Shown piece after piece: positions 13,882 to 46,667 of a stretch of DNA of 64,000 bases. Positions within the stretch are counted from its first letter, which is position 1. Each line of letters starts with the position of its first letter. Under the pieces are notes generated by a model. It was given only the letters and a program-made list of their open reading frames with translations. It ran no database searches and had not been told where the DNA came from. The stretch comes from Pachysolen tannophilus NRRL Y-2460 (Eukaryota), in assembly GCA_001661245.1 (NCBI GenBank), contig KV454012.1:712147-776146 (forward strand), given 5' to 3'. A program made the position numbers and the translations under genes.

Positions 13882-15149
13882 GTACTACAAGTACAATTAA
13901 AGAAAATCATAGACCCCATTCGCGTAATAATAGTGTGAATAATCCGTGTTATAGATTATCATTTCAAGTGGGAGTTGCAGAGAATAAGAATATTAAATTT
14001 AGACCGACAATGGAAGATGTTCATACATATGTGGCAAATTTTGCAGAAAGATTGGATTGGGGTTATTTTGCAATATTTGATGGACATGCTGGGAAACAAA
14101 CTGCTCGGTGGTGTGGATCTAATTTACATTCTGTTATTGAAAAAAATATTTTAAAAAATGATAATATAGATTTAAGGATTAATTTAAATAGATCATTTGT
14201 TGAAGCAGATAAATTGATAAAGGAAAATTGTAATGGATCAAGTGGTTCAACAGCTGCTGTTGCGATATTGAGATGGGAGGAATTGGATCCTCGCTCACCG
14301 TTAAAACCAGATTATCATCATGGATCAATAGACCCACAAGCTACTCCATTTGATTTTATACCAACTAAAAATCATAAAAGAATGTTATATACACTGAATG
14401 TTGGTGATTCACGTTTGATTTTATCAAGAAATCATAAAGCTTTAAGATTATCTTATGATCATAAAGGTTCAGATGCCAATGAACAAAATAGAATTATAGA
14501 TTCTGGTGGAATTGTTATGAAATCTAGAGTTAATGGAATGTTAGCAGTAACAAGATCTTTAGGAGATACATATATGAAAGATTTAGTAATAGGGAATCCA
14601 TATACAACAGCAACAGAAGTTACTGAAAGAGATGATTTTTTAATTATTGCTTGTGATGGATTATGGGATGTATGTTCAGATCAAAAAGCTGTAGATTTAA
14701 TCAAGGATGTTAAGGATAGTAATAAAGCATCAAAAATATTATGTGATTATGCAATAGAAAATATGACAACAGATAATATCACCGTCATGGTTGTTCGATT
14801 CGATAATAGCGTATTAGCGTATAAAAATGATCCTGAAGAAGCTTTGGATCAAAATAGTAGTAGTGATGCTATAGTGGATGGTAATGATGAGATTACCATT
14901 ACGAACGTTGATGAAGTTATAGCTGATGACGAAGAAACAAATAAAGATGTCCAAGTGAATGATGAGAATAATAATAACAACAATGATAATAATAATAATA
15001 ATGATAATGATGAAAATAATAATGAAAATGAAATTGAAAATGGAACTGGAAACGGAATTGGAAAGGGAACTGGAAATGAAAATGAAAATGAAAATGACGA
15101 TGCTGTGAATGAAAAGGTAACTGAAGAAGTGAATCAGTTATCAATTTAA
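13701..15149 (+). CDS. PTC1: Type 2C protein phosphatase Ptc1
   Basis: MEDVH, FDGHAG, NVGDSR, SYDH, GMLAVTRSLGD, ACDGLWDV, DNITV motifs; poly-Asn and acidic tails. Confidence 0.95.
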
Positions 15150-15537
15150 AAGAAACTTTTTACATTGAATTATTTAGGTGCTTCTAATTCCATCTCTTCA
15201 TATCTTTCTTGGGGTCTAAGTTGACATATATTTATAATCTATCTATTTACATATTAGCATATATGTAGAATTGTTTTTTTTCTTTTTTTTTTTTTTTTTT
15301 TTTTCCTATTATTATTATACCTTTTTTAGTTTAATTTTGCTTGTTTACGTGAAGAAAAAAATAATAAAAAAAAAACAGATCATAAAATCTTTGCTTTGAT
15401 AAAGGTTAACTATTGTGATAAATCATAAAAACTAATATAATCAGATCTATATCTTTTTAAGGTACAATCTCTGCTTTTATTGGAGAAAACCTCTTATCAA
15501 TTAGTGGGTAGTTGATAAATCACCAAAAACCAAAACA

Positions 15538-15545
15538 TTACCCGG
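15538..15545 (+). promoter_or_regulatory. Reb1-type site TTACCCGG
   Basis: Exact consensus in an AT-rich intergenic region upstream of the 15921 ORF. Confidence 0.45.
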
Positions 15546-15920
15546 CAATTTTTGTTTTGTTTTTGGCTCTGTTAAGAAACGATATAAAAAGAGCAAGTTT
15601 TCCTCCCTCTTTTTATTTGAGTTTTTCTTTTGATTTTCCTTATTTTTAAAAAGAAAAAAAGAGAAAAAACTACGTATTTTTTGTTTGCAACTTATCTTGT
15701 TGTCTGGTTATACGATCATAATATAATAAACTACAATAGATTAATAGTAATTAAGTTTCCTTTTATTTTTTTATTGTCTAATTCAAAAAGTCCTTTTTTT
15801 TTTTCTTCTTTGGCTTTCTAATTATTAGTTTTTGTGAGTGTGCTTTTTTCCTTTTCCCTTTATTTTTAATTTTTAATATTCTTTTTTTTTTTTTTATTTT
15901 ATTCATTTATTTCGGAAAAT

Positions 15921-16966
15921 ATGGCAGCACCTGCCCGGCTGTTATTATATAAGCCATTCTCTTTAGAAGCTAGTTGTCTTCGTACTAGGGTTTCTGTTAT
16001 GTCTGATGGGGATGAAAAGAGAATTCCATTATCTGGTGAATCTCTCTCTACTATTTCTGAAGAATTGAATTATCATTTAAAGGAGCAAGATAAAAATTTT
16101 TCTGAAGATATAATAAATATCTTCCCCTTTTTCAAGAAATATATGCATAAGGTATCTGTTGATGAATTTTATCAAAGATTAATTTATTTAAATGATACAG
16201 TAGAGTCGAATTCACAGACCTTTAAAAATTATTTAATTGAAACAAATTATCAAACAAGTTTATCAAATTTACAAAAAAGTATTCGTCATTTCTTATTAAT
16301 AAAGGAGATTAATCTATTAACTCCAAATTTAAGAGAAGAACTTAAAATATTAGCTTTAACTCATAAAAAATTAACATCATCCAAATTTATTTGTATGAAA
16401 CCAAGTATAGGAATTATTGGTAAATTAAATAATGGAGTAAATGGTGGATCACTGAAATCATATAAAATGGTTGTCTCTAGTAAAAATAAAGATACTGATT
16501 TAAGGAAAAAATCAATACAAAATATTTATATGAATAATTATCTTGATAATTTTAAAAAAAAATTCAAGTACAAAAATTTAATTTTTTACTTGCAGTTCCA
16601 TATTATTTTGAATATCTTAATTCCAAAATGTATCAAACAAATGAGGATTTTATTTTTCGAAATTTTAAAAGTAGTAATTATGGTAGTTATCCTTTAACTC
16701 CAAAATTTGAAAATATCAATATTCCAAAAATTATTAATACAGCTTCAATGAAATTTGGTATTAATTGTAATCCTATTTCTACAATAAAACCAGTAAAGAG
16801 TGGGATTCTTCCAATGAAACCTCAAATCATTCGTAATAATAATAATAATAATAATAAAAATAATAAAATTTTTGGTAATAAAGTCAATAAACCGAAAAAG
16901 AAAAAGAGGTTTCTTCGTAAGTTGAAAACAAATAAATTGACTTTAAATAATGAGCATTTTTTTTAA
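15921..16966 (+). CDS. Hypothetical protein, apparently split by a frameshift at or after the A9 run at 16554-16562
   Basis: Two overlapping ORFs; the second frame opens exactly at the A run. No family recognised. Confidence 0.55.
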
Positions 16967-17246
16967 GCATTATATTATACATAAATATATGCAAATAGGA
17001 GTTTTACATGAGATTTTATTAATACATACATCATACATTTTAATTTTAATTTTAATTTTAGTACAATTTGTAGTTAACTTTATAACTAAAAAGATTCTTC
17101 TCTACATTAATATTTCTTGTGAAAGTGAAAGAAAGTATACATATATATATATATATTATTACTATTATTGTTATTATTTATAGTTAGGTATATTAAATAG
17201 TCACTAATTTTTTTTAAAAACTTCTAAATTTTTTCAACTAATACAA

Positions 17247-17678
17247 TTAGATACTTCCTAATAAAGCACATCCACCTAACAAGCCACCAAATAAAAGGGT
17301 ATATTTTAATTTTGTAAAATCAATAGACATTGGTTTTAAAATATTACCACCACTTGAACTAGTACTTGAACTTGAACTAGAACTTGAACTTGAACTTGAA
17401 CCTGAAGTTGCACTACTACTACTTTCACTTGAATCTGAAGTACTTGAACTTGTATCATCTGCTGAACTTGATGAAGCCAGTGAAGTAGCACTTGCAGTTG
17501 TACTATTTCCATAAGAGGTACTATTGTAACCCATAGTCATTGAACTTGAACTGTTAGAAGCAGATGAACCAGAATCAATAGTAGTGGTCATCGTCATCGT
17601 CATAATTGATCCATCCATTGACATGGTGGTAAGGTAAGCATCAGTTGAAGCATCTCTAATCAGAAGGTGGTTTACCAT
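17247..17678 (-). CDS. Small Ser/Thr-rich protein with a C-terminal hydrophobic (GPI- or tail-anchor-like) end
   Basis: ATG in strong AAAATG context, poly-Ser tract, C-terminus SSGG...YTLLFGGLLGGCALLGSI. Confidence 0.65.
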   Translation of the reverse strand: MVNHLLIRDASTDAYLTTMSMDGSIMTMTMTTTIDSGSSASNSSSSMTMGYNSTSYGNSTTASATSLASSSSADDTSSSTSDSSESSSSATSGSSSSSSSSSSSSTSSSGGNILKPMSIDFTKLKYTLLFGGLLGGCALLGSI

Positions 17679-18659
17679 TTTGCTTTTTTTTTTTTTTTTT
17701 CAATCTATATCAATTTCTTTTTAGTTTTATTTTTTGTATTTTTTTATTTGCCAGAACTTAATATTAAAGAACGTAAAACGAATGGACGATCTAAAGCCTT
17801 TTCACAACAAAAAGACAAAACTGAAAACTGGAAAATGAAAAGAAGAGCAAAATTTAAAAAACAAGATTCTTCTATACAGTTAAAACAATAACCTAAGCGA
17901 ATGTTATATATATATGAATTGAAAACAATAAATATATATATAATAAGTGAAATTTTCTTTATATAGATAAAATTATATTATATATTAATATAACATACCA
18001 CATGATTTTATATCAAGGGGGAAGGAAGAGGAGATCTTACCTTACTTATATACAAATACGAAGTTATAAAAAGAAACTCTTTGAACTTTCTTGGGAAAAT
18101 GACTTGCAGATTATCGAGCAAAATAATATCTTAATGAAAGACAAAAATAATAAATATGTATTCATTTACCGCATTAAGAAGAATGAGCAAATTCCAGACT
18201 CTTTTTAAAAAAATAGAGAAAAAGACAAGAAGAGAAGGCCAATTCATATTTTTCAAATTACTTTTTACTTTATTTACTTAGATCACAAGAAATAATGCTT
18301 TGTGCTTTGTGCTTTGTAGATTTATTTTTTCATAGATGTATTTCTATTTTCAATACTTTTGTCATTTAAGCAATCATATATTTCCAACTTCTACTTGCAG
18401 GGAAGATGCAGAAGAGATTTTACTGGGGCACAGCATATCACTGCCCGTTTGCTTGTAAGATTAAAAGAAGAAGAAAAAACAAGAAAAAACATAATGACAA
18501 TAAAGAGATGATGATGATAATATAAGATAAAATCTATAAAAAGACAAGAAGAATAATTAATCAATTATGTTTATAATTTGCCCATTCATTATTTATTATT
18601 TTTACAAGGTTTTTTTTCTTTTCTTTTCTTTTCTTTTCTTTTATTTTATTGATCTATAT

Positions 18660-19723
18660 TTATTTCATTACAATGCAAAAATTATTTTTATTGGCACTGC
18701 CACTAGTGCTTATCTCTTTCTTATTGAAGGTTTTCCCCTTTTGGATAGATTCTTCACCTTTCCAAAGCCATAACCAATAAGCTACTTTTTTAGCTTCATA
18801 GTATTTTATTTTTGTAAAACCTATTGATTCCATAATTTTGTCCAAGAGTTGATTATTTAAATATCTAGAATTTTTAACACAAGGTAAGGGTAAAACTAAA
18901 AATAATAATGGAGTCATATTATTATTATTTTTAATTGGTTTTTTCAAAAATTTTGTAATTTTTTTCAACATATCACCTCTTTCAATTGGTGTAGGTACAA
19001 AATTTAATACTAATGAACAAGAAATTAAATCAAATTTCTCTAAATTTGATATAGGTAATGGACGTTCCATAAAATTTTGTTCTAATATTAATCCAGGTTC
19101 TTGAGATCTTAAATCTATTCTTGTTACTGATTTAAAAATTTTACTTGTTGAAATCAGATTTTTTGAATTTAAACATCCAATTTCTAATGCTGTACAATCA
19201 CAAGTATTGATACATTTTAAAAAATTTAACCATTCAATTAATTTTTTGGATGAATCACCGCCTCTTGCTTGGCCTAAAGTTGATGCTATTTGATATGTCT
19301 TTAAGCCTCCTCTTTTCAAAATTTCACCATCAATTTTTGCTAATAATTCAATTAAATCAAGTTCATTTGATAAATTTTCATTTATTATTATTAAATCTCT
19401 TGATGATTGATTTAATTTTATACTTCTTATAGTATCTTCTTTAATCGATTCATAAACATCCCAAATATCATTTTTCCTCTTGATTATATCTATATAATTA
19501 CCTTCATCAACCTGTTGATTCAATGAAACTGATATTTTTTGTAATATAATTGTTTTTTTTTTTGTAAAATATGAAATCTTCTAATAAGTTGTCTTGTCTT
19601 TTGAGGTTTTAAAGATTTAACTTTCCTTAAAGATGAATCAGTTATCTTCAGAGATCGATATGGCAGAAGTAAACCTGACTTCTTCTTATTCTTCTTATTA
19701 TTCTTATTCTTCGAACCCCCCAT
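18660..19723 (-). CDS. BMT2: 25S rRNA m1A2142 methyltransferase Bmt2, split by a 1-nt frameshift at the T11 run (19553-19563)
   Basis: KPQKTR.LIRRFH N-terminus; GGL..YQ.AS..GQ, GGDSSK, ALEIG, FDLISCSLVLNFVP and NSRY motifs; adjacent to MAK5. Confidence 0.9.
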
Positions 19724-19958: not shown

Positions 19959-22269
19959 ATGGTAAAGATTCCACCTAGAATATTGAAGAAATCTTTGAAA
20001 AATAAGAATAAACAGCTTAATGGTAATGGTAAAGGTAAAGGTAATGGAAGAGGTGTAAAGAAAGTTGTTAAACCTTCTTCTTTAAAACAAAAATCTGTTT
20101 CTACCAGGTCAGTTTCTGCAGATGAGTTGAGATGGAAACCTGTTGAGATTCCAGATACTTTAGATGATTTCGGTGGGTTTTATGGATTAGAAGAAATTGA
20201 TGGGGTTGGCGTCAAAGTTATTAATGGTAGAGTTGAATTTTCAGTTGGAGATGACAATAAAATTGCAAAGGAGAATTCAAAAGAAGATCAAGAGGAATTG
20301 AAAGATATTGAAATGAGTGATGTTGACCAAAATCAAGTTATTGAAGATGAAGAAGAAGAAGAAAAAAAAATTCCAGTTATAAACTCTTCTAAAAAAAATA
20401 AAATTAATAAAAAACAGTCACAACAACAAAATGAATTTGAATCATTACCGGATTTACCTGAAGATGTACATTTACCAGAATGGGAATCTGATTCTTTGAA
20501 ATTGTCTCCTTATATTTTGCAAAGTTTATCGAAGTTAGGATTCACCAAACCAACACCTATTCAAAAGAAAACTATTCCTTTAGCTATATCTGGGAAAGAT
20601 GTAATCGGTAAGGCTATAACAGGTTCAGGTAAAACATTAGCCTATGGTATACCTATATTAGAAAAATATTTGATTAAAATAGCTTCGGGGAAAATTATAA
20701 GGGATAAAAATAATCCAATACCTCCAACAGGTATCATTTTTACACCAACAAGAGAATTGGCTCATCAAGTTGTTCAACATTTACAAAACTTGGCAAAATA
20801 TTCACCACTAACTAGTCGTGGTGTTGTATCCATTACCGGAGGGTTATCTATTCAAAAACAAGAAAGATTATTGTCTCATAGCCCAGGTATTGTAATTGCT
20901 ACCCCTGGTCGTATGTTAGAATTAATAGAGAAAAATGCAGATTTAGCTAAAAGATTAGCTTCTACTGATATTATTGTATTAGATGAAGCTGATAGATTAT
21001 TACAAGATGGTCATTTTGAAGAATTAGAAAAAATAATTGATTTATTTTTCAAAATGAGAACAAAAAATGATATTGAATTAGATTATAAATGGCAAACTCT
21101 AGTATTTTCTGCAACTTTCTCTAAAGATTTATTTGGGAAATTAGATAAACATAAGAAAAATGATAAAAAAAAATGGTAATAATAACAATAATGCTAATGG
21201 CTTATCTCTAGTGGATGATGAAGAAATTCTTAAGCTCTTATCAGCAAAATTAAAATTTAAAGATAAAAAACCATCGTTAGTAGATGTTAACCCTAAGGAA
21301 ATGGTTGCTTCTCAAGTAACAGAAGCATTAATTGAATGTGGTGCTACGGAGAGAGATTTGTACTTGTATTATTTCTTGTTGATGTATCCAGGTACTACAT
21401 TAGTATTTGCAAATAGTATTGATGCGGTTAGAAGATTAGCACCATTTTTAACTAATTTAAAAATTCCATCATTTTCTATCCATTCAAAAATGATTCAAAA
21501 ACAGAGATTGAGGGCATTAGAAAGATTTAAGGCTGCTAGTGAGAATAATAATCAAGCAGTCTTGATAGCATCGGATGTTGCCGCTAGAGGTTTGGATATC
21601 CCTGGTATTACACATGTTGTACATTATCATTTACCAAGAACAGCAGATGTCTATATTCACAGATCTGGAAGAACTGCGAGAGGTTCAAATGAAGGAGTTT
21701 CAGTTATGCTTTGTTCCCCACAAGAAGCTGGAGGTCCATTGCAAAGGTTGAGGAAATTAGTTCTGTCCAATCGGGGTAGAAATTCCAAAAAATATAATAT
21801 GAGATTTAATATGAGTGATGTGAAATCATTACCTATTGAAATGGATATTGTTTCACAATTAAAACCAAGAGTTAAACTTGCTTCAGAATTAACAGATGCA
21901 GAAAATGCTTCATCTGGTTTACAAAAGGAAAATTCATGGGTATCAATAGCAGCGGAAGAATTAGGAATTGAGGAATTATCTGATATGGAAGAAGATGATT
22001 ATTTAAAAAGACATAGAAAGAGAATTGAGCACAAATCTTTAGATAAACAAGATGTGAAAATGAAAAAATTGGAATTGAAACAATTATTAGATCAATCCAT
22101 TAGAAAAGATTTAAGAAGAAGTTATTTAACTGGTGGTTTGAGTAATCTAGCTGCAATGTTGGTAAAAGGTGAAGGTCATAATCAAATTGTAGGACTTGAA
22201 AATGCTACAGCATTAGAAGATTTAAAAGTTAATAAGAAAAGAAAGAAACAAAAAAATTTACTTATGTAA
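19959..22269 (+). CDS. MAK5: DEAD-box RNA helicase Mak5, split by a frameshift at the A9 run (21165-21173)
   Basis: [44 protein letters not shown] and HRSGRTAR motifs spread across the two ORFs. Confidence 0.93.
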
Positions 22270-22587: not shown

Positions 22588-23477
22588 TTAAAAATCACTA
22601 TCATCATAATATTCATCATCTGAATCTTCATCGACCAATTGTTCGAAATTAACTTTATAACGTAATAGTGCACCAACACCACCAAAACCTTTAACAAATT
22701 GAGCACCTTCAGAAGATCTATCTGTGACGAATTCTAAAGTAGCACCATAATTTTTATAAGTTTCAGCCAACCATTCTAAAAATGAAACTTCTGAAACAAC
22801 TTCCATATCTGTTCCTGTTGCTTTATCCAATTGCCATGATTTATCTGGATTTCCAGGATCAACATGCAGAATTACTTCATTTCCTTCAGAATTTTTTAAA
22901 GTATATCTTATTATTGGTAAATTTTCATGAACAATAATTGTTTCACAAGCACCTAATTCCAAAGCTTTTAAAGTATCATCAATACCATAACAAAATTTAC
23001 CAGTATCTTGTGAAATTTCATCAAAATATTGAGTAATTAATTTTTTTTCTTGAATAAATTTAACATTACTTAATGCTTCAGCTGATAATTCAATGGCTTG
23101 ATTAAATCCATTTTCACCACCATATGAGATATCAACGATTTTAACAATTTTAGCTTGTAATCTATTATCAAACATATCTGATTTTGATAATTCATTTTTA
23201 AAATCTGCAGAACCTGCCAAGACTAAACCTGAAACATTAACTTTATCAGCAGTAATAAAATATTGAACAGCTGTTTCCGCCACTTTTCTAACATAATTAT
23301 GTCTTTTCTCATCTCTTAAACGAGAAAAACGTAAAGCAGATTGACCACCTCTTCCATGTTTTTTAGGTAAATCCACTGTAAATTTATATAAAATTTCTCT
23401 TGTATTACCAGATAAAGCACCAAATAAAGCACCATTACCATCCATAACAATAAATCCAAACCTATCATCACTTTCTA
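22588..23477 (-). CDS. SUP45: Translation termination factor eRF1, 3' part (5' end lies in the gap)
   Basis: KKHGRGGQS (GGQ) motif and GFGG.GA.LRY; frame continues upstream as [10 protein letters not shown] into the N run. Confidence 0.95.
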
Positions 23478-24040
23478 NNNNNNNNNNNNNNNNNNNNNNN
23501 NNNNNNNNNNNNNNNNNNNNNNNNNNNNNNNNNNNNNNNNNNNNNNNNNNNNNNNNNNNNNNNNNNNNNNNNNNNNNNNNNNNNNNNNNNNNNNNNNNNN
23601 NNNNNNNNNNNNNNNNNNNNNNNNNNNNNNNNNNNNNNNNNNNNNNNNNNNNNNNNNNNNNNNNNNNNNNNNNNNNNNNNNNNNNNNNNNNNNNNNNNNN
23701 NNNNNNNNNNNNNNNNNNNNNNNNNNNNNNNNNNNNNNNNNNNNNNNNNNNNNNNNNNNNNNNNNNNNNNNNNNNNNNNNNNNNNNNNNNNNNNNNNNNN
23801 NNNNNNNNNNNNNNNNNNNNNNNNNNNNNNNNNNNNNNNNNNNNNNNNNNNNNNNNNNNNNNNNNNNNNNNNNNNNNNNNNNNNNNNNNNNNNNNNNNNN
23901 NNNNNNNNNNNNNNNNNNNNNNNNNNNNNNNNNNNNNNNNNNNNNNNNNNNNNNNNNNNNNNNNNNNNNNNNNNNNNNNNNNNNNNNNNNNNNNNNNNNN
24001 NNNNNNNNNNNNNNNNNNNNNNNNNNNNNNNNNNNNNNNN
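23478..24040. other. Assembly gap (N run) hiding the SUP45 N-domain
   Basis: Run of N. Confidence 0.95.
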
Positions 24041-24455: not shown

Positions 24456-25690
24456 ATGGCTATATTGAGGAAACGGAAAGAGACACTAGAGCAAGAGTCT
24501 GATACGGATTCGATATCTGATTCTGCGTCGGAGATTTTGGCCAAGCCAAAGAATAGAAGACCAAAGGAAAATGCATTTACACAACAAAAATTAAAAGCTT
24601 ATAATCCAATTTTAACACCAAAAACTGTTATACCAATTTTTTTCATATTAGCAATTATATTTATTCCTTTAGGTGCTGGGATGTTATATGGATCAGCAAA
24701 AGTTGAAGAAATAATTATTGATTATGAACAATGTGAAAATTTAGCTAGTGATGATTATTATTCTGATATTCCAACTGAATATTATTCTTATTCATTTCAT
24801 GAAGAATTAACAATAACTCCAAAATGGAAATATGGTACAAATAGTTCAGAAACTGATTCTGATGAAGCTGGATTATGTTATATACAATTTCAAATACCTG
24901 ATGATATTGGTCCTCCAGTGTTTTTTTTTATAAATTAAAAAATTTTTATGCAAATCATCGTCGTTATGCAAAATCTTTTAGTGAAGATCAATTAAATGGT
25001 TTAGCTGCATCATTAACTGATATTGAAGATACAACAGGCCAGAACTGTCAACCTTTGTCTCATAATGATGATGGACAAAGATATTATCCTTGTGGATTGA
25101 TTGCTAATGCAATGTTTAATGATACTTTTTCTATTCCAGCAGCGGTTAATGATACAACTGATGATTATGATATGACTGAAGATGGAATAGCATGGTCTAC
25201 TGATAGTAATAGATTTAAAAAAACTGAATATAGTGCATCTGAAGTAGTTCCACCACCAAATTGGGTTAAAAAATTCCCTGATGGTTATACAGATGATAAT
25301 TTACCAGATATTTCAACATGGTACCAATTTCAAAATTGGATGCATACTCCAGGTTTACCAAATTTTAGTAAAATGGTTTTAAGAAATGATGATGATACAT
25401 TCCCAGCAGGTACTTATGAAATTACAGTAGGATTACATTTCCCAGTAACTGAATATGATGGTACTAAAGGAATTTATATTAGTACAAGATCAGTAATTGG
25501 AGGTAAAAATTCATTTTTAGGTATTAGTTGGATTGTTGCAGGTGGTATATGTTTCATCTTAGCATTGGTCTTTGTTGCAATCCATAACTTACATCCAAGA
25601 AAAACTGGAGATTTGTCCTTTTTAAGCTGGAATAAAGAAGAAAAAGCTATACATTTAGATGAAGATTCCCCTGAAAGAGTTATAATTTGA
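24456..25690 (+). CDS. Cdc50/Lem3-family flippase beta subunit, split by a frameshift at the T9 run (24921-24929)
   Basis: RRP.ENAFTQQKLKA, shifted frame continues YKLKNFYANHRRY..SFSEDQL, then YYPCGLIAN.MFNDTF and FQNWM. Paralogue (CDC50 vs LEM3) not resolved. Confidence 0.9.
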
Positions 25691-26185: not shown

Positions 26186-29100
26186 ATGGGTAGAAATAAT
26201 TCAAGCTCATCGTCCTCATCTCCATTAGCCGCTGTGATTCCAACGGCGGTAATGCAAACCCTGGGAATGTCAACGGCGGCTGCTGCTACAACAGAGGATC
26301 ATCCAGCTGGTAAACAAGATCTTTTGAGTAAATATATGGAAAAGGATGATGATGATGGGTACTTTGATAATATTGAAAATGAATTGATTTTAAAAAAAAT
26401 GGTTGGCAATTCTTTGAATAATTCTCCAATAAAGAAGACAAGGAAAAATCGTAAAAATTCACCAACAGAAATACAATTACCATTACAAAATAATAGTTTT
26501 TTGCATGGGCGGCATATACTACCACGATCTGCATCGTTGGAGTCGGAAGTATCATCAAATAGCGACTCACGAAATTTAAAATCAGATAAGAAATCAGTTT
26601 CTCAAAGACAACATTCATTAACGAATTCTGGATCAGGTCGTGCTCCTTTGTTGCTGCCGTCACTGCTGCCGTTGTCGTTGTCGTCATCATCATCATCCTC
26701 TTCTTCTTCAACCTCTTCGAGATCGTCTACTTTGTCATTGCTGCCACTGCCTTTGGATGCTACTTCTCAGCCTCATCTACTTCCAGCTCCTGTTTTCAAA
26801 AAATCATTTTCTCCTACAAAGCTTTTCCAAAGAAAAGACGAAATTTTAAGCTCCAATAGATTGAAAAAAAAAATACGATCAAAAAATGATAATGATGATA
26901 ACGTTTTCAAGAAACCATTACAAACTATTGTGAGGCCTCATAGTAATAATACAGACATATTCTCCGGACCAATAACACCTCAAACTCCTGAGTTTGCGCA
27001 GCAGCTGGCTCCTTTATCACCACCTAAATCAAACAATAATGCTAAACAACATTTAGTTTCATTGACACCAGCACAGAGAGTAGAAAAAAAACCAGGAAGG
27101 CTTTTTAATAATAGCGATAATAATAGTAATAATAATAGTACCAATAACGGTGTTGATCACGGGAAAAGTGCTTTGGATAGTTACGAATTTAAAGAATTGT
27201 TAGGGAAAGGAGCATCTGCTAGTGTCTTCAGAGCATTAAACTTAATAACAGGGAAAGAAGTTGCTATAAAGCAAATTGAAATAACTGGACAGGAAGATTA
27301 TCATCAATTGATGAGTGAAATCGATTTATTAAAAATGTTGAAACATAAAAATATTGTAAAATATCATGGGTTTGTAAAGACTCCACAAACTTTGAATATT
27401 TTTTTAGAATACTGCTCGGGAGGTTCATTAAGAAATTTGTACAAGAGAAGAAATTCTGGTTTAGATGAAGTAGAGGTAATTCGTTATACAAAAGATATTT
27501 TACAAGGTTTAAAATATTTACATGAACAAGGTGTTATTCATAGAGATGTTAAGGCTGCTAATGTATTATTAGCAGGCGATAGTACTGTAAAATTAGCTGA
27601 TTTTGGAGTCTCTTCAAAAGTTAACCATCATTCAAGCTTGGAAGTTGGTGGAACACCATATTGGATGGCTCCGGAAGTCATATTATTACAAGGAAGTTCA
27701 ACAGCATCTGATATATGGTCATTAGGTGCAACTGTCATTGAGCTTTTCACTACGCATCCTCCTTACCACGAATACGAACCATTGGCTGCATGTCATGCAA
27801 TAGGCATTGATGATTGTCCACCAATACCTGTTGATCTTCCTGAATTGGCTAAGGAGTTCTTGTTGGAATGTTTTCAGAGATCACCAGAAATAAGAATAAA
27901 TGCTGCAAGGTTATTACAACATGCTTGGTTGAACAAGCAAAATGTTGATGGAGCGAAAGACATCTTGAAAACCAGAACAGCTTCTGCATCAAATATTCTT
28001 CCCGGAAGTGCTGCTAATAACAGTAAGGCCAAATCTTTATTACCATATAGAGAGGAAAGCCTCAATACTAAAAATCAATGGGATTTTGATTTTAGCAATA
28101 TTGTTGGTGAAGATCTTGATAGGAAGTTATCTTCCTCTCAGGGAAATAAATTGTTTAAATCTAAAATCATCACTAATAAAGACCTGACTGACATCGATAT
28201 GAATGTATTGCAAGTCCCTAAATTGAGACCTTCTGCAAAAATAATGTCTATCAAAAGTAAAGAAAACTTGATTGGAACATTATCGCCTTTCAAAGAAGTG
28301 GATAATGAAATGATCAAAGAAGATGATTTTGAAGGTGATTTAGACTTGGGTAATACAAACAACAGAAATATGAAGATTATTACCACTGATAAGAAGAATA
28401 ATGGCCAAGTTGATAACTTTGCTTTGTTGAAACAATTTAATGAAGATAATAGTAATGATTTTGAGAAAGATTTTGAGCAAATAAGTTTGAACCTTGTAAA
28501 AGAACAGTCACAACTCAAAGAAATTAGCGATGATGAAGATCCATTCCTAGATTTAAAATTAGAGGATAGTATACTTAAACGGAATGAAGCAGAAAGCAAA
28601 GTGATTTTGAAAGTTCAAAATCTTATTGGCAAACTAGATAGCAACAATAATGATTTAAACGAGGATATATCAAAGCTATATAAATTATTAGTTGAGAATC
28701 CATCCGCTAGCAACATAATTATTAAAAATCATGGATTAATAAGAATATTGGAGCTATTAAACGAGACTAATGATTACATTTCAGTTGATGTTAAACATTT
28801 GTTGTCGCTTTTAAACATTATTTTCAATGGAAACGTTTCTGCGATGGATTCATATTGTACAATTGGTGGTATAACTTCCATAACAAACTTTATTGAAACA
28901 AAATATCCTAGTGATATTAGGTTGGAAGTTGTTTCGTTTATCAACAATGTGACTAATTCTTGCAAGTCTTTACAGATGCTAGTTGCATGTGGAGGGTTAC
29001 GACTTTTGAATAGTTTAATTGAGGAAGATATCGAATACTTTCCAGAATTCCCATTATGCGCAATCAATGGAATATTTGCTGTTTTTACTAACGATTTATC

Positions 29101-30169
29101 AACATCAAATTCTAATTTTTGTTATATTTTGAAGAACTCAGTAGATTGGTTAGCAATTGACTTGAATTATTTGATGAAAGCGGATAGTATTATAGATAGA
29201 GAAGCTTATTGTGACAAAATCATATCGATTTTTCAATCATTTCAGTCTTCCGAACCTAGAGTTAAATCTTATATCTCAACTACAACGCTATTCAGGTCAT
29301 TGTTCAAAAATTATGAAAAATTATGTTTTAAAAATCAATTAAAGATTTTGAAATTCATTTCATCCATATCCTCTGTACAGTCAAGCCTTGATATTTTAGA
29401 TGCATCTGGATGTTTGAAATTTTTAATAACTCAATTAAGGACAAATGCACCTCCAGCATCTAAATATAAAGAGGTTTCAAATGCTGTATGCCCAGCATTA
29501 TTTAATTTATGCCATTTGAATAAGATTAGGCAAATGGAAATTGTGAAATTAGGAGGTATACCATTATTGGCTTTATTATCCAAAATAGATTTACCGTTTA
29601 AAGATTTTATATTACCATTATTATCTGAATTTGTTACTTTAAATCAGAAAACAAGAGATTTGTTTTGGGAAAATAAAGTATTTGATATATTTGTAAGCTA
29701 TTTGATCAATTTAAATTGGCAAGTCACTTCATTAGATGCTATTAAGAATTGGTTGAATTATGATGGAAAACGGGTTGAAACTCAAATTTTGAAAAGAGTT
29801 GAACTTTTCATAAAAGGTTTTTTCATTTCTAACAATTTACAATTCTTGGAAATTTTTTCACAATTATTAGATAAAAGTTATAAAATTACCACTAATTTTT
29901 GTCAAAAAGAATTGATTGATGCAACTTTTACTAAATTTCAATTTAATAAGAAAACAGCAGTTATTCAATTAAATTTATTGAAAATTTTGAAGAAATTAAT
30001 ATCTTGTAAATTAAATGACAAAAATGGTTCGGATAAAAATAGTGAAAATCTATTAAAAGAAATTAAAGTTAAGGTTAAAGAAATCTTAGACGATGGTAGC
30101 CATGAAGGAGCTCTGAAATCATCTATTTTAGTTAAAGAGTTGGCGAATGAAATACTTCTTATGTTTTGA
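26186..30169 (+). CDS. CDC15: Cdc15/SepH-like mitotic exit kinase
   Basis: STE-type kinase (EIDLLK.LKH.NIVKYHGF, HRDVKAAN, GTPYWMAPE, YE..AA..AI..DDCPP) followed by an ARM-like helical region (LFNLCHLNK.RQ). Confidence 0.8.
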   Translation: MGRNNSSSSSSSPLAAVIPTAVMQTLGMSTAAAATTEDHPAGKQDLLSKYMEKDDDDGYFDNIENELILKKMVGNSLNNSPIKKTRKNRKNSPTEIQLPLQNNSFLHGRHILPRSASLESEVSSNSDSRNLKSDKKSVSQRQHSLTNSGSGRAPLLLPSLLPLSLSSSSSSSSSSTSSRSSTLSLLPLPLDATSQPHLLPAPVFKKSFSPTKLFQRKDEILSSNRLKKKIRSKNDNDDNVFKKPLQTIVRPHSNNTDIFSGPITPQTPEFAQQLAPLSPPKSNNNAKQHLVSLTPAQRVEKKPGRLFNNSDNNSNNNSTNNGVDHGKSALDSYEFKELLGKGASASVFRALNLITGKEVAIKQIEITGQEDYHQLMSEIDLLKMLKHKNIVKYHGFVKTPQTLNIFLEYCSGGSLRNLYKRRNSGLDEVEVIRYTKDILQGLKYLHEQGVIHRDVKAANVLLAGDSTVKLADFGVSSKVNHHSSLEVGGTPYWMAPEVILLQGSSTASDIWSLGATVIELFTTHPPYHEYEPLAACHAIGIDDCPPIPVDLPELAKEFLLECFQRSPEIRINAARLLQHAWLNKQNVDGAKDILKTRTASASNILPGSAANNSKAKSLLPYREESLNTKNQWDFDFSNIVGEDLDRKLSSSQGNKLFKSKIITNKDLTDIDMNVLQVPKLRPSAKIMSIKSKENLIGTLSPFKEVDNEMIKEDDFEGDLDLGNTNNRNMKIITTDKKNNGQVDNFALLKQFNEDNSNDFEKDFEQISLNLVKEQSQLKEISDDEDPFLDLKLEDSILKRNEAESKVILKVQNLIGKLDSNNNDLNEDISKLYKLLVENPSASNIIIKNHGLIRILELLNETNDYISVDVKHLLSLLNIIFNGNVSAMDSYCTIGGITSITNFIETKYPSDIRLEVVSFINNVTNSCKSLQMLVACGGLRLLNSLIEEDIEYFPEFPLCAINGIFAVFTNDLSTSNSNFCYILKNSVDWLAIDLNYLMKADSIIDREAYCDKIISIFQSFQSSEPRVKSYISTTTLFRSLFKNYEKLCFKNQLKILKFISSISSVQSSLDILDASGCLKFLITQLRTNAPPASKYKEVSNAVCPALFNLCHLNKIRQMEIVKLGGIPLLALLSKIDLPFKDFILPLLSEFVTLNQKTRDLFWENKVFDIFVSYLINLNWQVTSLDAIKNWLNYDGKRVETQILKRVELFIKGFFISNNLQFLEIFSQLLDKSYKITTNFCQKELIDATFTKFQFNKKTAVIQLNLLKILKKLISCKLNDKNGSDKNSENLLKEIKVKVKEILDDGSHEGALKSSILVKELANEILLMF

Positions 30170-30396: not shown

Positions 30397-31182
30397 TTAA
30401 TGATCATTGTTTTGAGAAGATGATAAAATTCTTAAAATGTACATGAACAAATTGATGATATCCAAGTACAAAGTAATAGTAGCAGCGATTTCTTCTTCTG
30501 GATGGAAACGTTTCATAATATTTTGAGTATCAATCATTATGAAAGCGCTAAAAATCAGAGCACCAAAGAAACTATAAACTAATTCAACAGTAGAATTATG
30601 TGGGATAAATAAGAACACAAAAGTGACACTGAATAAACCTAAAAACAGAACAGAAACATAAGTTTCCCAATTTGAAAAATCATATTTTGTTTGTAGTGAA
30701 TAAGCGGTTAAACCTATGAATAAAATTGTAGTCATTAAGATTGCTTGTAATACAATATTTGTATCATATAAAGAAGTAACAATACCAACCCCATAACTTT
30801 CAAATACCGTGAACGCTGCCAATAGCATCAAATTGTATGGATATGATCTTGATTTCCAATATGCTAGTCCCATAAAGACTATAGAACCAATCATTGAAAC
30901 AACAAGAAGCCAAGAATTTTCCAAACACCAATCTCTAAGATTTGGATTAAAATATATCAATGTACCAGTCAAAAAAGTGATGAATAATTGCAGAGATAGC
31001 AACGAATAAACTTTTCTTATAAAAACATGTCTAATTTCAATATCACAAGATGCAACACTTGTAGAATATTTAAAATCTGCTGGTAAATTATCATTAAAAT
31101 CTCTTGGTTCCTGAGTAGATGAGCCATTTGGATCATAAACCGGCGGCTCGTTAATCGGTGTATAACTAGCTGATTGAGACAT
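30397..31182 (-). CDS. BXI1: Bax inhibitor-1/TMBIM family membrane protein
   Basis: IRH.FIRKVYSLL, YPYNL, QTKYDF, DTQ.IM, LYLDIINLF motifs. Confidence 0.9.
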   Translation of the reverse strand: MSQSASYTPINEPPVYDPNGSSTQEPRDFNDNLPADFKYSTSVASCDIEIRHVFIRKVYSLLSLQLFITFLTGTLIYFNPNLRDWCLENSWLLVVSMIGSIVFMGLAYWKSRSYPYNLMLLAAFTVFESYGVGIVTSLYDTNIVLQAILMTTILFIGLTAYSLQTKYDFSNWETYVSVLFLGLFSVTFVFLFIPHNSTVELVYSFFGALIFSAFIMIDTQNIMKRFHPEEEIAATITLYLDIINLFMYILRILSSSQNNDH

Positions 31183-32532: not shown

Positions 32533-32970
32533 NNNNNNNNNNNNNNNNNNNNNNNNNNNNNNNNNNNNNNNNNNNNNNNNNNNNNNNNNNNNNNNNNNNN
32601 NNNNNNNNNNNNNNNNNNNNNNNNNNNNNNNNNNNNNNNNNNNNNNNNNNNNNNNNNNNNNNNNNNNNNNNNNNNNNNNNNNNNNNNNNNNNNNNNNNNN
32701 NNNNNNNNNNNNNNNNNNNNNNNNNNNNNNNNNNNNNNNNNNNNNNNNNNNNNNNNNNNNNNNNNNNNNNNNNNNNNNNNNNNNNNNNNNNNNNNNNNNN
32801 NNNNNNNNNNNNNNNNNNNNNNNNNNNNNNNNNNNNNNNNNNNNNNNNNNNNNNNNNNNNNNNNNNNNNNNNNNNNNNNNNNNNNNNNNNNNNNNNNNNN
32901 NNNNNNNNNNNNNNNNNNNNNNNNNNNNNNNNNNNNNNNNNNNNNNNNNNNNNNNNNNNNNNNNNNNNNN
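32533..32970. other. Assembly gap (N run) flanked by poly-T
   Basis: Run of N. Confidence 0.95.
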
Positions 32971-36579: not shown

Positions 36580-37161
36580 ATGGTAATGTCACATCATAAT
36601 GTTCGTGATAACGGTGGGATAACTAAACCCAGAAAGAGAATAAATAATTTGAAAACGTCAGACCGTCGTTTGGCTGCAGGTAGACAACCAACACAATTCT
36701 TGCATTCTTCAACACCATCAAAATTAGATATTCTGCCTGGTGTATTACATTCAAATTTCCAAATATTAAAAGATTTGAAAAAAGAATCTGTTTCTGGTAA
36801 AGATAGTAATGTCACAGTGGTAAGAACTCTGCTGGATGGTAGTAAGAAATGGGAAGATCCTACTTTGCTTGAATGGGACCCAAAACATTTTAGAATATTT
36901 GTTGGTAATTTAGGTCCAGATGTAACAGATGAATTGTTATTAAGAGCTTTTATGCATTATCCAAGTTTGAAAAAAGTTAAAGTTGTCATTGATCCAAAGA
37001 CAAATAAAAATAAAGGGTATGGGTTTGTTGCATTTGAAAATACAGATGATTATATAAGGGCGTTAAACGATATGAATGGTAAATATATTGGTCAAAGACC
37101 TGTTCAGTTGAAAAGAGCTAAAACTGATATTAAACCTGTTAAGAAAAAGGCGAAAAAATGA
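36580..37161 (+). CDS. RBM42-like RRM protein (tri-snRNP associated)
   Basis: WEDPTLLEWDP..FRIFVGNLG..VTDE.L.RAF..YPS and KGYGFV.F..MNGKYIG.RPV.L, the signature of RBM42. Confidence 0.85.
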   Translation: MVMSHHNVRDNGGITKPRKRINNLKTSDRRLAAGRQPTQFLHSSTPSKLDILPGVLHSNFQILKDLKKESVSGKDSNVTVVRTLLDGSKKWEDPTLLEWDPKHFRIFVGNLGPDVTDELLLRAFMHYPSLKKVKVVIDPKTNKNKGYGFVAFENTDDYIRALNDMNGKYIGQRPVQLKRAKTDIKPVKKKAKK

Positions 37162-39276: not shown

Positions 39277-39511
39277 NNNNNNNNNNNNNNNNNNNNNNNN
39301 NNNNNNNNNNNNNNNNNNNNNNNNNNNNNNNNNNNNNNNNNNNNNNNNNNNNNNNNNNNNNNNNNNNNNNNNNNNNNNNNNNNNNNNNNNNNNNNNNNNN
39401 NNNNNNNNNNNNNNNNNNNNNNNNNNNNNNNNNNNNNNNNNNNNNNNNNNNNNNNNNNNNNNNNNNNNNNNNNNNNNNNNNNNNNNNNNNNNNNNNNNNN
39501 NNNNNNNNNNN
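39277..39511. other. Assembly gap (N run)
   Basis: Run of N. Confidence 0.95.
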
Positions 39512-41989: not shown

Positions 41990-42054
<65 letters not shown>

Positions 42055-42172
42055 TGATTTAATTCAATTGGAGAAACAATTAGCACAAGACGAAAAGTTT
42101 ATTTCTAAACCATCAAAAGAAGAGGCATCAGTGGAAGATATTGCTGCTGCTATAGAAAAGACTCATATATAG
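40904..42172 (+). CDS. RNA1: Ran GTPase-activating protein Rna1
   Basis: LRR repeats (SGNTIG, FTGRL, LSDNAFG, GRNRLENG, QNGIRP) and an acidic tail. Confidence 0.95.
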
Positions 42173-42295
42173 CATGTTTGACTTTTTATTTCCTATTTTG
42201 TGTAGTTTATGAAGCAAATACAAAAAATAAATATATAAATATATATATATAATTAATATAGCCATTAGAATGTAAAAGCAAAGTAACCGACTAAT

Positions 42296-43745
42296 CTAAC
42301 CTTTAACTGCATCTTTAAGGATATCTTCTTTCAACGAATCAATCAATTTATCTTTATCTGCCCATAACATCTCTAACCATTTTTCCAATCTTCTTTTCTT
42401 AACAGGGACTCTTTGTAACATTCTCGATTTGATATGAATTCTTATAACGTAAGGTGAAGGATTCAATGAAAAAAGTTCTAATAATGAAGGTTGTTTGAAC
42501 TCACCTCCTGGCTTGATAATAGGAATCCCATCTGTAGTAAAATTAGACAGTTTTTGTTGTTTCCCTTGTTTTTCTTTTTTCCCTGTGGAAACAGGTGTTT
42601 GAAAAGAAGAAGAAGCAATATTAAAGCTTTCAGCAGCAGTGGTGGACCCAGTGGCAATAGTTACCTGAGCAGAGTTAAGAATAGGCAACTTATTTCTTTC
42701 TTTATCCTTTTCTTTCCTTTCCCACCTTTCCCACATTTCTCTTTTTTTATGTGTAATTGGAGATCCCATTAAAGATTCTGAGCCTGTCATTCCAACAGGT
42801 TTATCTATTTCAGCAATCTTATCATTTTCTTGGATAATGTTGCTATGGTTAAAGCCAACTGGGTTTCTATAATAAATAATGCTAACATCGTATAATCTTG
42901 CAAATGAAGTTTCACTTAAAGCTTGAATTGAATTATAAAAACTTGAAAATCTTGGGTACAACAAGTTTTGAAATTTTGGAAGATAAAACTTGTCACACAT
43001 TTCTTTTTGTAATCTAGATGATTCTAAATTAAAAATATTCACTTCTGGGAAAAGTACAATCCATTCTGGTACTTTACTACAAATCATTTTTTTAAAAATT
43101 AAAAGACTTGATTTTTCATCTAATTCCCAATTTTCATCACAACTTGCTAAATTTTTCAATATCTTAAGCGTTGGAATTTGCCATATATTATACCAAGTGA
43201 AAAAATTGATTTTAGGTAAAACCATTGAATCAATATTACTCTTGGTTGAATTTTTAGTAATTTGGTATGCCTTAGACAGTGATAATCTAGCTAAATACAG
43301 AAATACAAAATGATCACATAATGAGTAATGATTACTTATCAACAATGCCGAGTCTGCCTCTAACTCATCGCCAACAATCTGAAACTTGACTCCATTTTGT
43401 TCCTAGAAAGCAAAATAAGCAAAATAATAAAAAAAAAAAAATAATAAATAGTAAGTACGCATTGAACATTTTTATAAACTTTTAATCTATGGGCGCTTTG
43501 CGGTAAATTCATACCAAGAAGTAAAGTGATAATTCCCAAAAATTAGCACATGTGATTCTCTTCAAATAATCTGAAGTCGAAGGAAAGAAAACTCTCAATC
43601 CACTTATTGAAACCGAAATAAACTGATAAACAATCAAATACATCAACAATATACACAAAACAGAAACCCCTCTCAACAAGGCTCTCCCAAAAACTGGTAA
43701 CGGACGAATCCCAATATCATTTGCAAGCTCCAAAGACATTACCAT
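42296..43745 (-). CDS. MUM3: Mum3-like acyltransferase-fold protein; exons 43745-43515 and 43402-42296
   Basis: Phase-0 intron 43514-43403 (GTATGA...TACTTAC...TAG) joins ...LYFL|EQNGVKFQIVGD...ISNHYSLCD. Also LFPEVNI, LLYPRF, LYDV.I.Y and LEKWLE..W..KD motifs. Confidence 0.75.
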
Positions 43746-44054
43746 GACTCCAATCACTACTATCACTATCACTACCAATATCACAACCCAAATCAAACTC
43801 TAAACCCACCTATCTAAAATCGATTGATTTGTTTAATCCATCAATTTTATCTTTAAAACTTATCTCATCTCATGTTTCCTCTTTAGGTCATAAAAGAAAA
43901 ATTTTTTTTTTCATTTTAAAAGTTTTTTTTTCATTTTTTTTCTTTTTTCATTTTTTCAATTTAAATATCAAGCTTTGTTGAGGTTAGCTGAGGTTAGCTA
44001 AGGTTAGAAGGTATTGAAGAGAAGGTATAGGCTGTGATTGATTGGTTGTTAATA

Positions 44055-46667
44055 ATGTCTCGAGTAATAGTTAAGGGGCTTCCAAAGTATTTAACTGAAG
44101 ATAAGTTGAAGGAGAAGTTTGGTGAGAAAGGTGATGTTACAGATGTTAAATTGATGAAGAATAGATTTGGTGAGTCTAGGAGGTTTGCTTTTATTGGTTA
44201 TAGAAGGCTGCAAGATGCTGAAGATGCGGTGAGGTATTTCAATAAGTCTTTTATAGATACTTCGAGAATTGATGTTGAGTTGGCAAAGACATTTGCAGAT
44301 CCAAATGTGCCATTATCATGGAGAGAGAAAAAAAGATTACAAGATGAGAATTTAAGATTGCAGAAGGAAAAGACTTTGGAATTGGAACAAAATTTGAAAA
44401 TGGAGGCTACTGCAAGAGGGAATAAGAATAATAAGAGACAAAAAATTTCTGATGAAATTAATCTGCAGATTGATAGTAATCCTAAATTGAAAGAGTTTAT
44501 GCAAGTTATGAAACCAAGTCGTGAAGTGAAATCTTGGTCAAATGATATGGTAGTGAGTGAATCAGGTGCTCCTTCGAATAAAGATCTTGAAGCAGTGTTG
44601 GCAGAAAAGGAACTTGGAGGAAGTTCAAAAGTGATACGGGAAACAAATCATAATGGTAAGATCATTTCAGAAGATGCAAGTGATGATGAATATGAAGATT
44701 TCAATACAAAATCCTCATCTAATATTGAGAATGATGATGGCTCAGAAACTCTTCTGGAAGAACAAATGATTAGCTTGTCTGAATTGCCAGAGAAGGAAAA
44801 CATCAATGATAATGGTGAAGGTGTGTCTGATTTAGATTGGTTAAAGCAAAGACAAGTAAGAATCAAAGAAGGAGGTGAAAAAGTCATTCAAAAACAGCAA
44901 AAATCATCGTCACAAGAAATTGAAAATGAAAATATTTCAAAATCACAAGATGAAGTTGAAGTTGAATTAGAAAAAATTGAAACAGAACAAGAAAAATCAA
45001 TTAATGGAATCTTAGAAACTGGAAGATTATTTTTACGTAATATTTCATATACAGCAAAAGAAGAAGATTTTACCGAGCTATTTTCAAAATTTGGAGAATT
45101 AGAAAGTGTTCATATTGCAATTGATACAAGAACAGGTACTTCAAAAGGTTTTGCATATATTCAATTTAAATCTTCGGATGATGCTGTTGAAGCTTATAAG
45201 GAGTTGGATAAACAGATTTTTCAAGGAAGATTATTACATATCTTACCAGGACAAGTGAAAAAAGATCATAAATTGGACGAGTTTGATCTCAAGAATCTTC
45301 CGTTGAAAAAACAAAGAGAATTGAAAAAAAAACTGAATGCTTCAAAATCTCAATTTAGTTGGAATTCTTTATTCATGAATCAAGATGCAGTAATGGAATC
45401 TGTTGCAAGCAGATTAGGAGTTGAAAAATCACTGTTGTTGGACCCAGAAAATAGTTCTTCTGCGGTGAAACAAGCATTAGCAGAAGCTTCCGTCATTGGA
45501 GATGTCAGAAAATATTTTGAAATGAAAGGTATAGATTTGACAAGTTTTGAGAAAACAAAAGAAAGGGATGATAAAGTTGTACTTGTTAAGAATTTTCCAT
45601 ATGGAACTACTATAGAAGAAATTGGAGAGTTGTTTTCTCCATTTGGAGAATTAAAAAGATTATTGATGCCTCCAGCAGGAACTATTGCTATTGTTGAGTT
45701 TAGAGATTTACCATCTGCTAGAGCTGCATTTACTAAATTGGCATTTAGAAGATTTAAAAAATCAATTATTTATTTAGAGAAGGGTCCAAAGGACTTATTT
45801 ACAAGAGAACCAACTGAAAGTGAATTAATTTCAATTATGAACGATAAAGAACAGAGTCAAGAAGAAATCTCCACTGCAAAGGAAGCTAAAACAACTTCTA
45901 ATGATATAATGGCTTTTGAGAATAACGTTGAGAAGGACAATGAAGATACAGAAGATTTTACTGGACCTACAGTTTCCGTATTTGTGAAGAACTTGAATTT
46001 CTCAACAACACAACAACAGCTTGGAAATTTATTCAAACCATTAGAAGGATTTATTGTCTGTACTATAAAGCAAAAACCTGATTTAAAAAATCCAGGAAAA
46101 TTTTTAAGTATGGGTTTTGGGTTTGTTGAATTTAAAACCAGTGATCAAGCAAAAGCTGCTATAGCTGCTTTAGATGGACATGTATTTGATGGACATAAAT
46201 TGCAACTCAAACTCTCAACAAGACAACACGTTGTTTCAGAAACAACTCTGAAAACTCCGAAATCAGCCAAATCATCCAAAATTATTGTCAAGAATTTACC
46301 ATTTGAAGCTACAAGAAAGGACGTTGTTGAATTATTTTCTTCATTTGGTCAACTCAAGTCTGTTAGAGTTCCAAAGAAAATTGATAATTCCACCAGAGGT
46401 TTTGCCTTTGTTGAATTTACATTATTGAAAGAAGCAGAGCAAGCCATGGATCAATTAAAAGGTGTACATTTGTTAGGTAGACGGTTGGTTATGCAGTTTG
46501 CTGAAAAGGAAGCAACCAACGTCGATGAGGAGATCGATAAGATGACTTCTAGAGTCAAGAAACAAGTCAATACTACTAAGATGGCTCATGTTTCTAGATT
46601 GACCGGAAAGCGTAAAATAGATGGATTGGAGGACGATGAATTTGGAGATGAGCTTGATAAAATGTAA
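44055..46667 (+). CDS. MRD1: Multiple-RRM pre-rRNA processing protein Mrd1
   Basis: MSRVIVKGLP start, five RRMs, FSWNSL.MN and SAVKQALAEA; PAC/RRPE-like motifs upstream at about 43864-43913. Confidence 0.96.
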   Translation: MSRVIVKGLPKYLTEDKLKEKFGEKGDVTDVKLMKNRFGESRRFAFIGYRRLQDAEDAVRYFNKSFIDTSRIDVELAKTFADPNVPLSWREKKRLQDENLRLQKEKTLELEQNLKMEATARGNKNNKRQKISDEINLQIDSNPKLKEFMQVMKPSREVKSWSNDMVVSESGAPSNKDLEAVLAEKELGGSSKVIRETNHNGKIISEDASDDEYEDFNTKSSSNIENDDGSETLLEEQMISLSELPEKENINDNGEGVSDLDWLKQRQVRIKEGGEKVIQKQQKSSSQEIENENISKSQDEVEVELEKIETEQEKSINGILETGRLFLRNISYTAKEEDFTELFSKFGELESVHIAIDTRTGTSKGFAYIQFKSSDDAVEAYKELDKQIFQGRLLHILPGQVKKDHKLDEFDLKNLPLKKQRELKKKLNASKSQFSWNSLFMNQDAVMESVASRLGVEKSLLLDPENSSSAVKQALAEASVIGDVRKYFEMKGIDLTSFEKTKERDDKVVLVKNFPYGTTIEEIGELFSPFGELKRLLMPPAGTIAIVEFRDLPSARAAFTKLAFRRFKKSIIYLEKGPKDLFTREPTESELISIMNDKEQSQEEISTAKEAKTTSNDIMAFENNVEKDNEDTEDFTGPTVSVFVKNLNFSTTQQQLGNLFKPLEGFIVCTIKQKPDLKNPGKFLSMGFGFVEFKTSDQAKAAIAALDGHVFDGHKLQLKLSTRQHVVSETTLKTPKSAKSSKIIVKNLPFEATRKDVVELFSSFGQLKSVRVPKKIDNSTRGFAFVEFTLLKEAEQAMDQLKGVHLLGRRLVMQFAEKEATNVDEEIDKMTSRVKKQVNTTKMAHVSRLTGKRKIDGLEDDEFGDELDKM

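Follow-up and report, generated by a model that had tools for sequence, protein, structure and literature searches.

The window analysed here is a 64-kb stretch of DNA (64,000 nucleotides) from contig KV454012.1, and its subject is the reading of the codon CUG (CTG in the DNA), which an earlier note on the sequence had taken to encode alanine instead of leucine. The window is very AT-rich, with a GC content of 23-32% per 4 kb, and contains four N-masked runs (8126-8597, 23478-24040, 32533-32970 and 39277-39511) totalling 1,708 bases. It holds 32 open reading frames (ORFs) of at least 150 amino acids, and the Pfam matches are those of ordinary budding-yeast nuclear genes: an Mdm1-like PXA/PX protein, a HAK-type K+ transporter, Mcm2, a PP2C phosphatase, a Mak5-like helicase, eRF1, Cdc50, a long kinase, a Bax inhibitor, a thioredoxin, an RBM42-like RRM protein, Trs65, Mbf1, Mrd1, Nop7, Med18, GatF, Erg24, Voa1 and an Fmp42-like MFS protein. 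The evidence set out below indicates that the window very probably belongs to the nuclear genome of a budding yeast in the CUG-Ala clade (Alaninales), where CUG is translated as Ala (NCBI translation table 26).

CTG is rare in these ORFs, as the earlier note had observed, making up 66 of 13,479 codons (4.9 per 1000), while the other codons of the standard Leu set were counted 780 (TTA), 364 (TTG), 141 (CTT), 50 (CTA) and 17 (CTC) times. The share of CTG within the CTN box is similar in standard-code yeasts and is therefore non-discriminating. At least one CTG occurs in 26 of the 32 ORFs, and all nine CTG codons on which the earlier note had built its case are present and in frame. No tRNA with a CAG anticodon was found within the 64 kb, where the only tRNA gene is one for tRNA-Pro(TGG) (Table 1), in agreement with the statement that the decoding tRNA lies outside the window.

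CTG codons in the contig's public proteins, and the proteins of close relatives

Five public proteins of the contig carry Ala at all of their 19 CTG codons, which is the reading of table 26. The Mrd1 record (P0001) differs from the standard translation of the ORF only at six CTG codons, with Ala at 6/6, and the Mdm1 record (P0241) has Ala at 5/5, while exact table-26 translations of Bxi1 (three CTG codons), Med18 (three) and Erg24 (two; P0513) are found in NCBI, UniRef and nr under the same contig of 2,193,613 bases. Exact-sequence look-ups were made with ten queries, comprising the table-26 translations of eight ORFs and, in addition, the RBM42-like ORF as read by tables 1 and 12. Five of the eight table-26 translations, that of the RBM42-like ORF included, had no match as exact records, presumably reflecting differing gene models, and neither the table-1 nor the table-12 reading of the RBM42-like ORF had an exact record either. 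The depositors had already applied the CUG-Ala code.

A second line of evidence comes from proteins of close relatives that are available as standard-code translations. The nearest Mrd1 relative (P0002), about 68-70% identical to the window's protein, has L at 6 of 45 conserved-Ala columns, two of which are 100% Ala, and at 0 of 30 conserved-Ser columns. The mean number of L residues at conserved-Ala columns in the other sequences is 0.161, and the excess in P0002 has a Poisson probability of 2e-8. At the same six columns the window itself has GCG, GCT, GCA, GCA, one CTG and one TCG, and the pattern in P0002 is the signature expected of a CUG-Ala yeast. The nearest Fmp42 relative (P0121) likewise has L at 2 of 19 conserved-Ala columns (p = 9e-4), while the nearest Mdm1 relative (P0242) has it at 0 of 15. 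Yeasts that read CUG as Ser show the reverse, with P0192 and P0220 each carrying L at 8 of 18 conserved-Ser columns and at no conserved-Ala column. A standard-code 'L' at conserved-Ala columns of a close relative thus separated the codes cleanly. A metagenome locus (L001; 130,809 bases) was considered as the possible DNA source of P0002 and rejected, as it belongs to a different yeast of CUG-Ser1 type, its Mrd1 being identical to P0099 with one CTG in 849 codons.

The position of the window among yeasts was examined in a quick single-gene IQ-TREE phylogeny of Mrd1 (34 rows, no named Alaninales row). The window paired with P0002 (SH-aLRT 98), and this pair joined Komagataella (85), outside a 24-row CUG-Ser1 group (98) and apart from the Phaffomycetales rows. 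The best named matches of Fmp42 and Mdm1 are Pichiales (Kuraishia, Komagataella, Candida boidinii and Ogataea). This placement, beside Pichiales/Leu2 yeasts and outside CUG-Ser1, fits that of the published Ala clade. It also bears on the alternative that CTG encodes Ser here, as in table 12 or the Ser2 clade: many named best matches of the window's proteins are CUG-Ser1 yeasts, at about 61% identity, but the tree places the window outside its CUG-Ser1 group, the window's nearest relative has L at conserved-Ala and at no conserved-Ser columns, and the public records use Ala. The conclusion that CUG is read as Ala is supported by the contig's records, the L-at-Ala signature of P0002 and P0121, and the position of Mrd1 in the tree.

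Alignment columns at CTG codons

Four of the window's proteins were aligned with homologues, and rows sharing 90% identity or more with the query or with a further row were removed, leaving 88 of 119 rows for Mrd1, 116 of 120 for Fmp42, 110 of 119 for Mdm1 and 149 of 150 for Bxi1. There are 20 CTG codons in these alignments. For seven of them over half of the column consists of gaps, as it does for 317 of the 2,925 remaining codons (p = 0.004), which leaves 13 usable columns. Together with the structure-based comparisons described below, 34 of the 66 CTG codons were examined.

The columns speak clearly against an ordinary Leu codon. Under the standard code, CTG would be a rare Leu codon in a yeast with AT-rich DNA, and the public records would show Ala through an annotation error. 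However, just 3 of the 13 CTG columns have Leu as their commonest residue, compared with 197 of 274 columns for TTA, TTG, CTT, CTC and CTA (Fisher p = 5e-4), and columns with at least 60% L amount to 1/13 versus 146/274 (p = 0.001). A polar residue is commonest in 7/13 CTG columns versus 31/274 for the other Leu codons (p = 4e-4), and at least 60% A is reached in 1/13 versus 0/274. A log-odds decoding, which recovered the standard-code residue of 57 codons out of 60 when applied to the first three alignments (the three misses being CTG and two codons with only one or two columns), reads CTA (12 columns) and CTC (6) cleanly as Leu, and does not do so for CTG (10 columns), whose summed scores are E -4.9, A -5.2, D -8.6, S -13.7 and L -15.8. 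An adjacent CTG pair in the RBM42-like protein also aligns with Ala-Ala. What favours the standard code is that all three of those Leu columns are Leu-majority, one of them with L in 97 of 116 rows and no Ala, that Leu occupies the eRF1 CTG site in the human protein, and that 5 of 17 window CTG positions are L in the nearest relatives. On balance, the standard code is a very unlikely explanation.

The same columns are less informative on Ser. Across the 13 CTG columns the commonest residue is A in three, L in three, S in one and another polar residue in six, with at least 50% A in one. Ser is commonest in 1/13 CTG columns versus 118/236 columns of Ser codons (p = 0.003) and reaches at least 50% in none of the 13 versus 67/236, and Ala is far above Ser in five CTG columns from membrane helices. 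The single Ser column is Mrd1-732 (S 28, A 17, T 16 of 88). An empirical cross-entropy model ranks S (-58.2) over A (-61.4) and L (-61.7), placing Ser ahead by about 3 bits; in its control, with 13 columns drawn at random, at least 99% of trials gave the right residue for 42 of 43 other codons, and 76% did so for GTA. With the column counts, the relatives, the tree and the records taken together, a Ser reading is extremely improbable. The earlier note had proposed tabulating CTG columns; such a count rejects Leu as an ordinary reading and favours Ala over Ser, though not decisively.

Several results weigh against reading CUG as Ala, or weaken what supports it. Ala is commonest in 3/13 CTG columns versus 81/121 columns of GCN codons (p = 0.004), the cross-entropy ranking just given prefers Ser, and the window's 13 columns taken alone would leave Ala versus Ser unsettled, with Ala favoured but not decisively. 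Most of the columns compared with single orthologues of known structure show a residue other than Ala, Leu or Ser (I, K, V, P, Y, E, C and Q are found). The Ala of the public records is the annotators' choice of table and no measurement, the 'L' residues of P0002 are known from the protein only, their codons unseen as DNA, and the tree that suggests the clade is a quick one of a single gene, with no named Alaninales sequence. Finally, at least 50% L is found in 3/13 CTG columns versus 2/121 GCN columns (p = 0.0065), namely at Bxi1 codon 209 and at Fmp42 codons 100 and 326. As the Fmp42 DNA is reproduced without differences in contigs from two studies (see below), the Leu-column CTGs there are not assembly errors.

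These Leu columns could be taken to suggest mixed or context-dependent decoding, with CUG read mostly as Ala and to a meaningful extent as Leu, so that CTG persists at conserved Leu sites; stochastic decoding of CUG as Ser or Leu is documented in Ascoidea asiatica (PMC6041473). Against this, the Pachysolen study (PMC4937558) gives Ala at 97.2% of 907 fully supported CUG positions in mass spectra and describes a tRNA(CAG) of Ala type (G3:U70) without a long variable arm. In addition, the Leu-column CTGs all lie in membrane helices, where a change from Leu to Ala is mild, and the sample is only 13 columns. CTG is also a single transition from TTG, the second commonest Leu codon of the window (364 uses), so that mutational proximity is a simpler account. 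Mixed decoding on a meaningful scale is very improbable, and Ala remains the very probable assignment. The methodological lesson is that the CTG columns of 64 kb are too few and too poorly conserved to split Ala from Ser by counting alone.

Individual sites and neighbouring genes

The CTG codons considered singly are listed in Table 1. The clear matches to Ala are those at Mrd1 45333, RBM42 36829 and 36832, and Erg24 51468, and the RBM42 pair falls in a conserved stretch that runs into W-E-D-P. The earlier note had held that homologues have Ala at most of its cited sites. This proved correct for three of the seven sites that could be aligned, with one further site mixed and three not Ala: its expectation of Ala-Ala in RBM42 is borne out by the human protein, whereas among its four Mrd1 sites only 45333 is an Ala column, 44208 being mixed and 44463 and 45432 belonging to Glu and Gln columns, and at Ptc1 14394 the expected Ala is replaced by Ile in both human phosphatases, the only chains shown, with no fungal orthologue among them. 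The site-level argument is thus weaker than had been claimed, while the conclusion itself is supported by the records, the relatives and the tree.

Table 1 CTG codons considered singly, and the tRNA gene, with window coordinates and the residues found in homologues (counts are alignment rows).
Feature	Position	Strand	Open reading frame	Homologues and context
Mrd1 codon 427	45333..45335	+	44055-46667	Conserved-Ala column, A 56 of 88; A in P0001, standard-code 'L' in P0002
RBM42-like codons 84 and 85	36829..36834	+	36580-37161	Ala-Ala in human RBM42 chain 6qw6_R (one orthologue)
Erg24-like codon 29	51468..51470	+	51384-52742	Ala in one matched solved delta(14)-sterol reductase, 9l5r_c
Bxi1-like codon 64	30991..30993	-	30397-31182 (Bax inhibitor)	Ala commonest: A 35, L 28, V 25, I 22 of 149
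Bxi1-like codon 179	30646..30648	-	30397-31182	Ala tied commonest: A 41, G 41, V 15, L 14 of 149
Bxi1-like codon 209	30556..30558	-	30397-31182	Leu-majority: L 76, I 29, V 17, F 11, A 3 of 149
Fmp42-like codon 100	60918..60920	-	59655-61217 (MFS)	Strongly conserved Leu column: L 97, I 10, F 8, V 1, A 0 of 116
Fmp42-like codon 326	60240..60242	-	59655-61217	Leu-majority: L 64, A 15, I 10, M 8 of 116
Mrd1 codon 52	44208..44210	+	44055-46667	Variable column: D 14, A 13, Q 13, L 9 of 88
Mrd1 codon 137	44463..44465	+	44055-46667	Glu column: E 54, D 13, Q 11, A 3 of 88
Mrd1 codon 460	45432..45434	+	44055-46667	Gln column: Q 57, D 10, E 9, L 7, A 2 of 88
PP2C (Ptc1) codon 232	14394..14396	+	13701-15149	Directly before N-V-G-D-S-R; Ile in human PPM1A and PPM1B
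Bmt2-like CTG	19155..19157	-	19580..18663 (open frame)	In frame
Mak5-like codon 202	21763..21765	+	21160-22269 (C-terminal ORF)	In frame; no PDB match covered the site
tRNA-Pro(TGG)	12803-12874	-		Sole tRNA gene in the window

A further 13 CTG columns were read by eye from pairwise alignments with PDB entries, which offer few and partly redundant chains, and most of these sites fell within variable stretches. Besides those given in Table 1, the residues opposite CTG are Cys at Erg24-52, Gln at both GatF-118 and GatF-132, and Glu at Nop7-476; Nop7-343 has Ile, Arg, Ser and Pro in four chains. Mcm2 has Val and Val at codon 71, Pro, Pro, Glu and Ala in four chains at codon 103, and Tyr at codon 167, and eRF1-193 has Lys in yeast and Leu in human (two chains). 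The PDB search with Mrd1 returned paralogous RRM proteins only and no orthologue, and that with the C-terminal Mak5 ORF only other DEAD-box helicases, which left 21763 uncovered; RBM42-52 was likewise uncovered in the RBM42 search.

Two ORFs carry CTG codons in clusters. The kinase ORF (26186-30169, + strand; 1,327 amino acids) has nine CTG codons, none of them within the kinase domain (residues 333-582), and six are grouped at residues 157-188 in an N-terminal Ser/Pro-rich stretch. The Med18 ORF (+ strand) reads R-CTG-Q-CTG-Q-CTG-Q at 49274-49288, with three CTG codons interleaved with CAG, which table 26 renders as an Ala-Gln repeat. At this repeat a contig in each of the three sequencing runs considered below shows 34 unmatched letters at a back-joint (49290/49265), which hints at a repeat-length or assembly ambiguity.

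Logan contigs from three runs of two studies cover 47258-61218 in pieces with no base differences, including the whole of the Fmp42 and Erg24 ORFs, while the Mrd1 region is thinly covered among the matches listed. Sequencing runs containing the stretch came to five rows from two studies, with no RNA run among the matches listed. Compared with the window, the short-read contigs of all three runs also show differences of one or two bases at 48713, 51081, 52768 and 56051.

Some gene models in the window appear incomplete. The Mak5-like helicase consists of two overlapping ORFs in different frames (19959-21179 and 21160-22269, + strand), the shift falling within a run of nine A; given this run and the short-read differences elsewhere in the window, the split may reflect misassembly of the homopolymer and not a genuine frameshift. 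The Cdc50/Lem3 gene is likewise divided between two ORFs (24456-24938 and 25112-25690, + strand) separated by 173 bases and matching PF03381 positions 1-59 and 119-286, for which an intron, a frameshift or a missing piece is possible. The eRF1 (Sup45) ORF (22588-23445, - strand) is without its N-terminal domain because the upstream sequence is masked by the run of 563 N at 23478-24040. The open frame of the Bmt2-like protein (18663-19580, - strand; 306 codons) has its first ATG only at 19070, so that an upstream exon may contain the true start, or the start may be misassembled.

Known CUG codes and the origin of the codons

The window resembles the code described for Pachysolen tannophilus (table 26; Muhlhausen et al. 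2016, PMC4937558) in several respects. Besides the Ala at 19/19 CTG codons in the contig's records, it shares the AT-richness and the lack of CTG in conserved-Ser columns, and the proportion of ORFs bearing CTG (26/32) is close to the 80% of genes given in the paper, which counts 16,824 CUG codons in 5,288 proteins. The comparison differs in one respect, as the same paper describes the CUGs of a set of cytoskeletal and motor proteins as lying 'mainly at conserved alanine positions', while in the window at least 50% A is reached in 1/13 columns and at least 50% L in 3/13. Nothing found separates the window from the Pachysolen code system.

NCBI taxonomy places Pachysolen in the order Alaninales, and the Ala clade (Pachysolen, Nakazawaea and Peterozyma) is, in Krassowski et al. 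2018 (PMC5951914), a deep split within the Pichiaceae. The window matches the CUG-Ala clade of that study in lying beside Pichiales (Leu2) and outside Ser1, and in the L-at-Ala signature of P0002; its membership rests on that relative and on the annotation, the alignments containing no named member of the clade. The CUG-Ser1 code of Candida and relatives (table 12) is similar in that the same codon is reassigned, is rare and occurs mostly at poorly conserved sites. In contrast, the amino acid is a different one, and the window and its nearest relative show the reverse of the L pattern of Ser1 rows, which have L at up to 8/18 conserved-Ser columns and at no conserved-Ala column.

By the mechanism known from the literature, CUG would be decoded as Ala by a tRNA-Ala whose anticodon has mutated to CAG, and the published work on the Pachysolen tRNA and mass spectra suggests that the organism does in fact read the codon in this way. 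The CTG codons of the window would then be evolutionarily young, having probably re-arisen by point mutation after the reassignment, many of them a single mutation from codons for Leu, Gln, Val or Pro. Such codons may survive wherever Ala is tolerated, mostly at weakly constrained sites and also at Leu positions in membrane helices. With such an origin, CTG columns would be expected to resemble neither those of typical Ala codons nor those of typical Leu codons. The mean share of the commonest residue is 0.46 in CTG columns versus 0.68 for Ala codons (p = 0.007) and 0.67 for Leu codons (p = 0.008), and homologues have L, M, V, P, Q or R with a share of 0.35 in CTG columns versus 0.13 in Ala-codon columns (p = 4e-4). 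These six are the residues with codons one step from CTG, while at least two changes lead from GCN to CTG.

The CUG-Ala code is already known, having been described in 2016 and its clade delimited in 2018, and the public proteins of the contig use table 26; as biology, the window adds nothing new. For annotation the consequence is practical, as the window needs table 26, without which about four in five ORFs (26/32) would have Leu wrongly given for Ala at one residue or more. To a minor or context-dependent degree, CUG might still be read as Leu, for instance through a near-cognate tRNA-Leu(UAG), and CTG codons at conserved Leu sites might be sheltered in this way; this is very doubtful, yet if true it would make the yeast a second case of dual sense-codon decoding besides Ascoidea.

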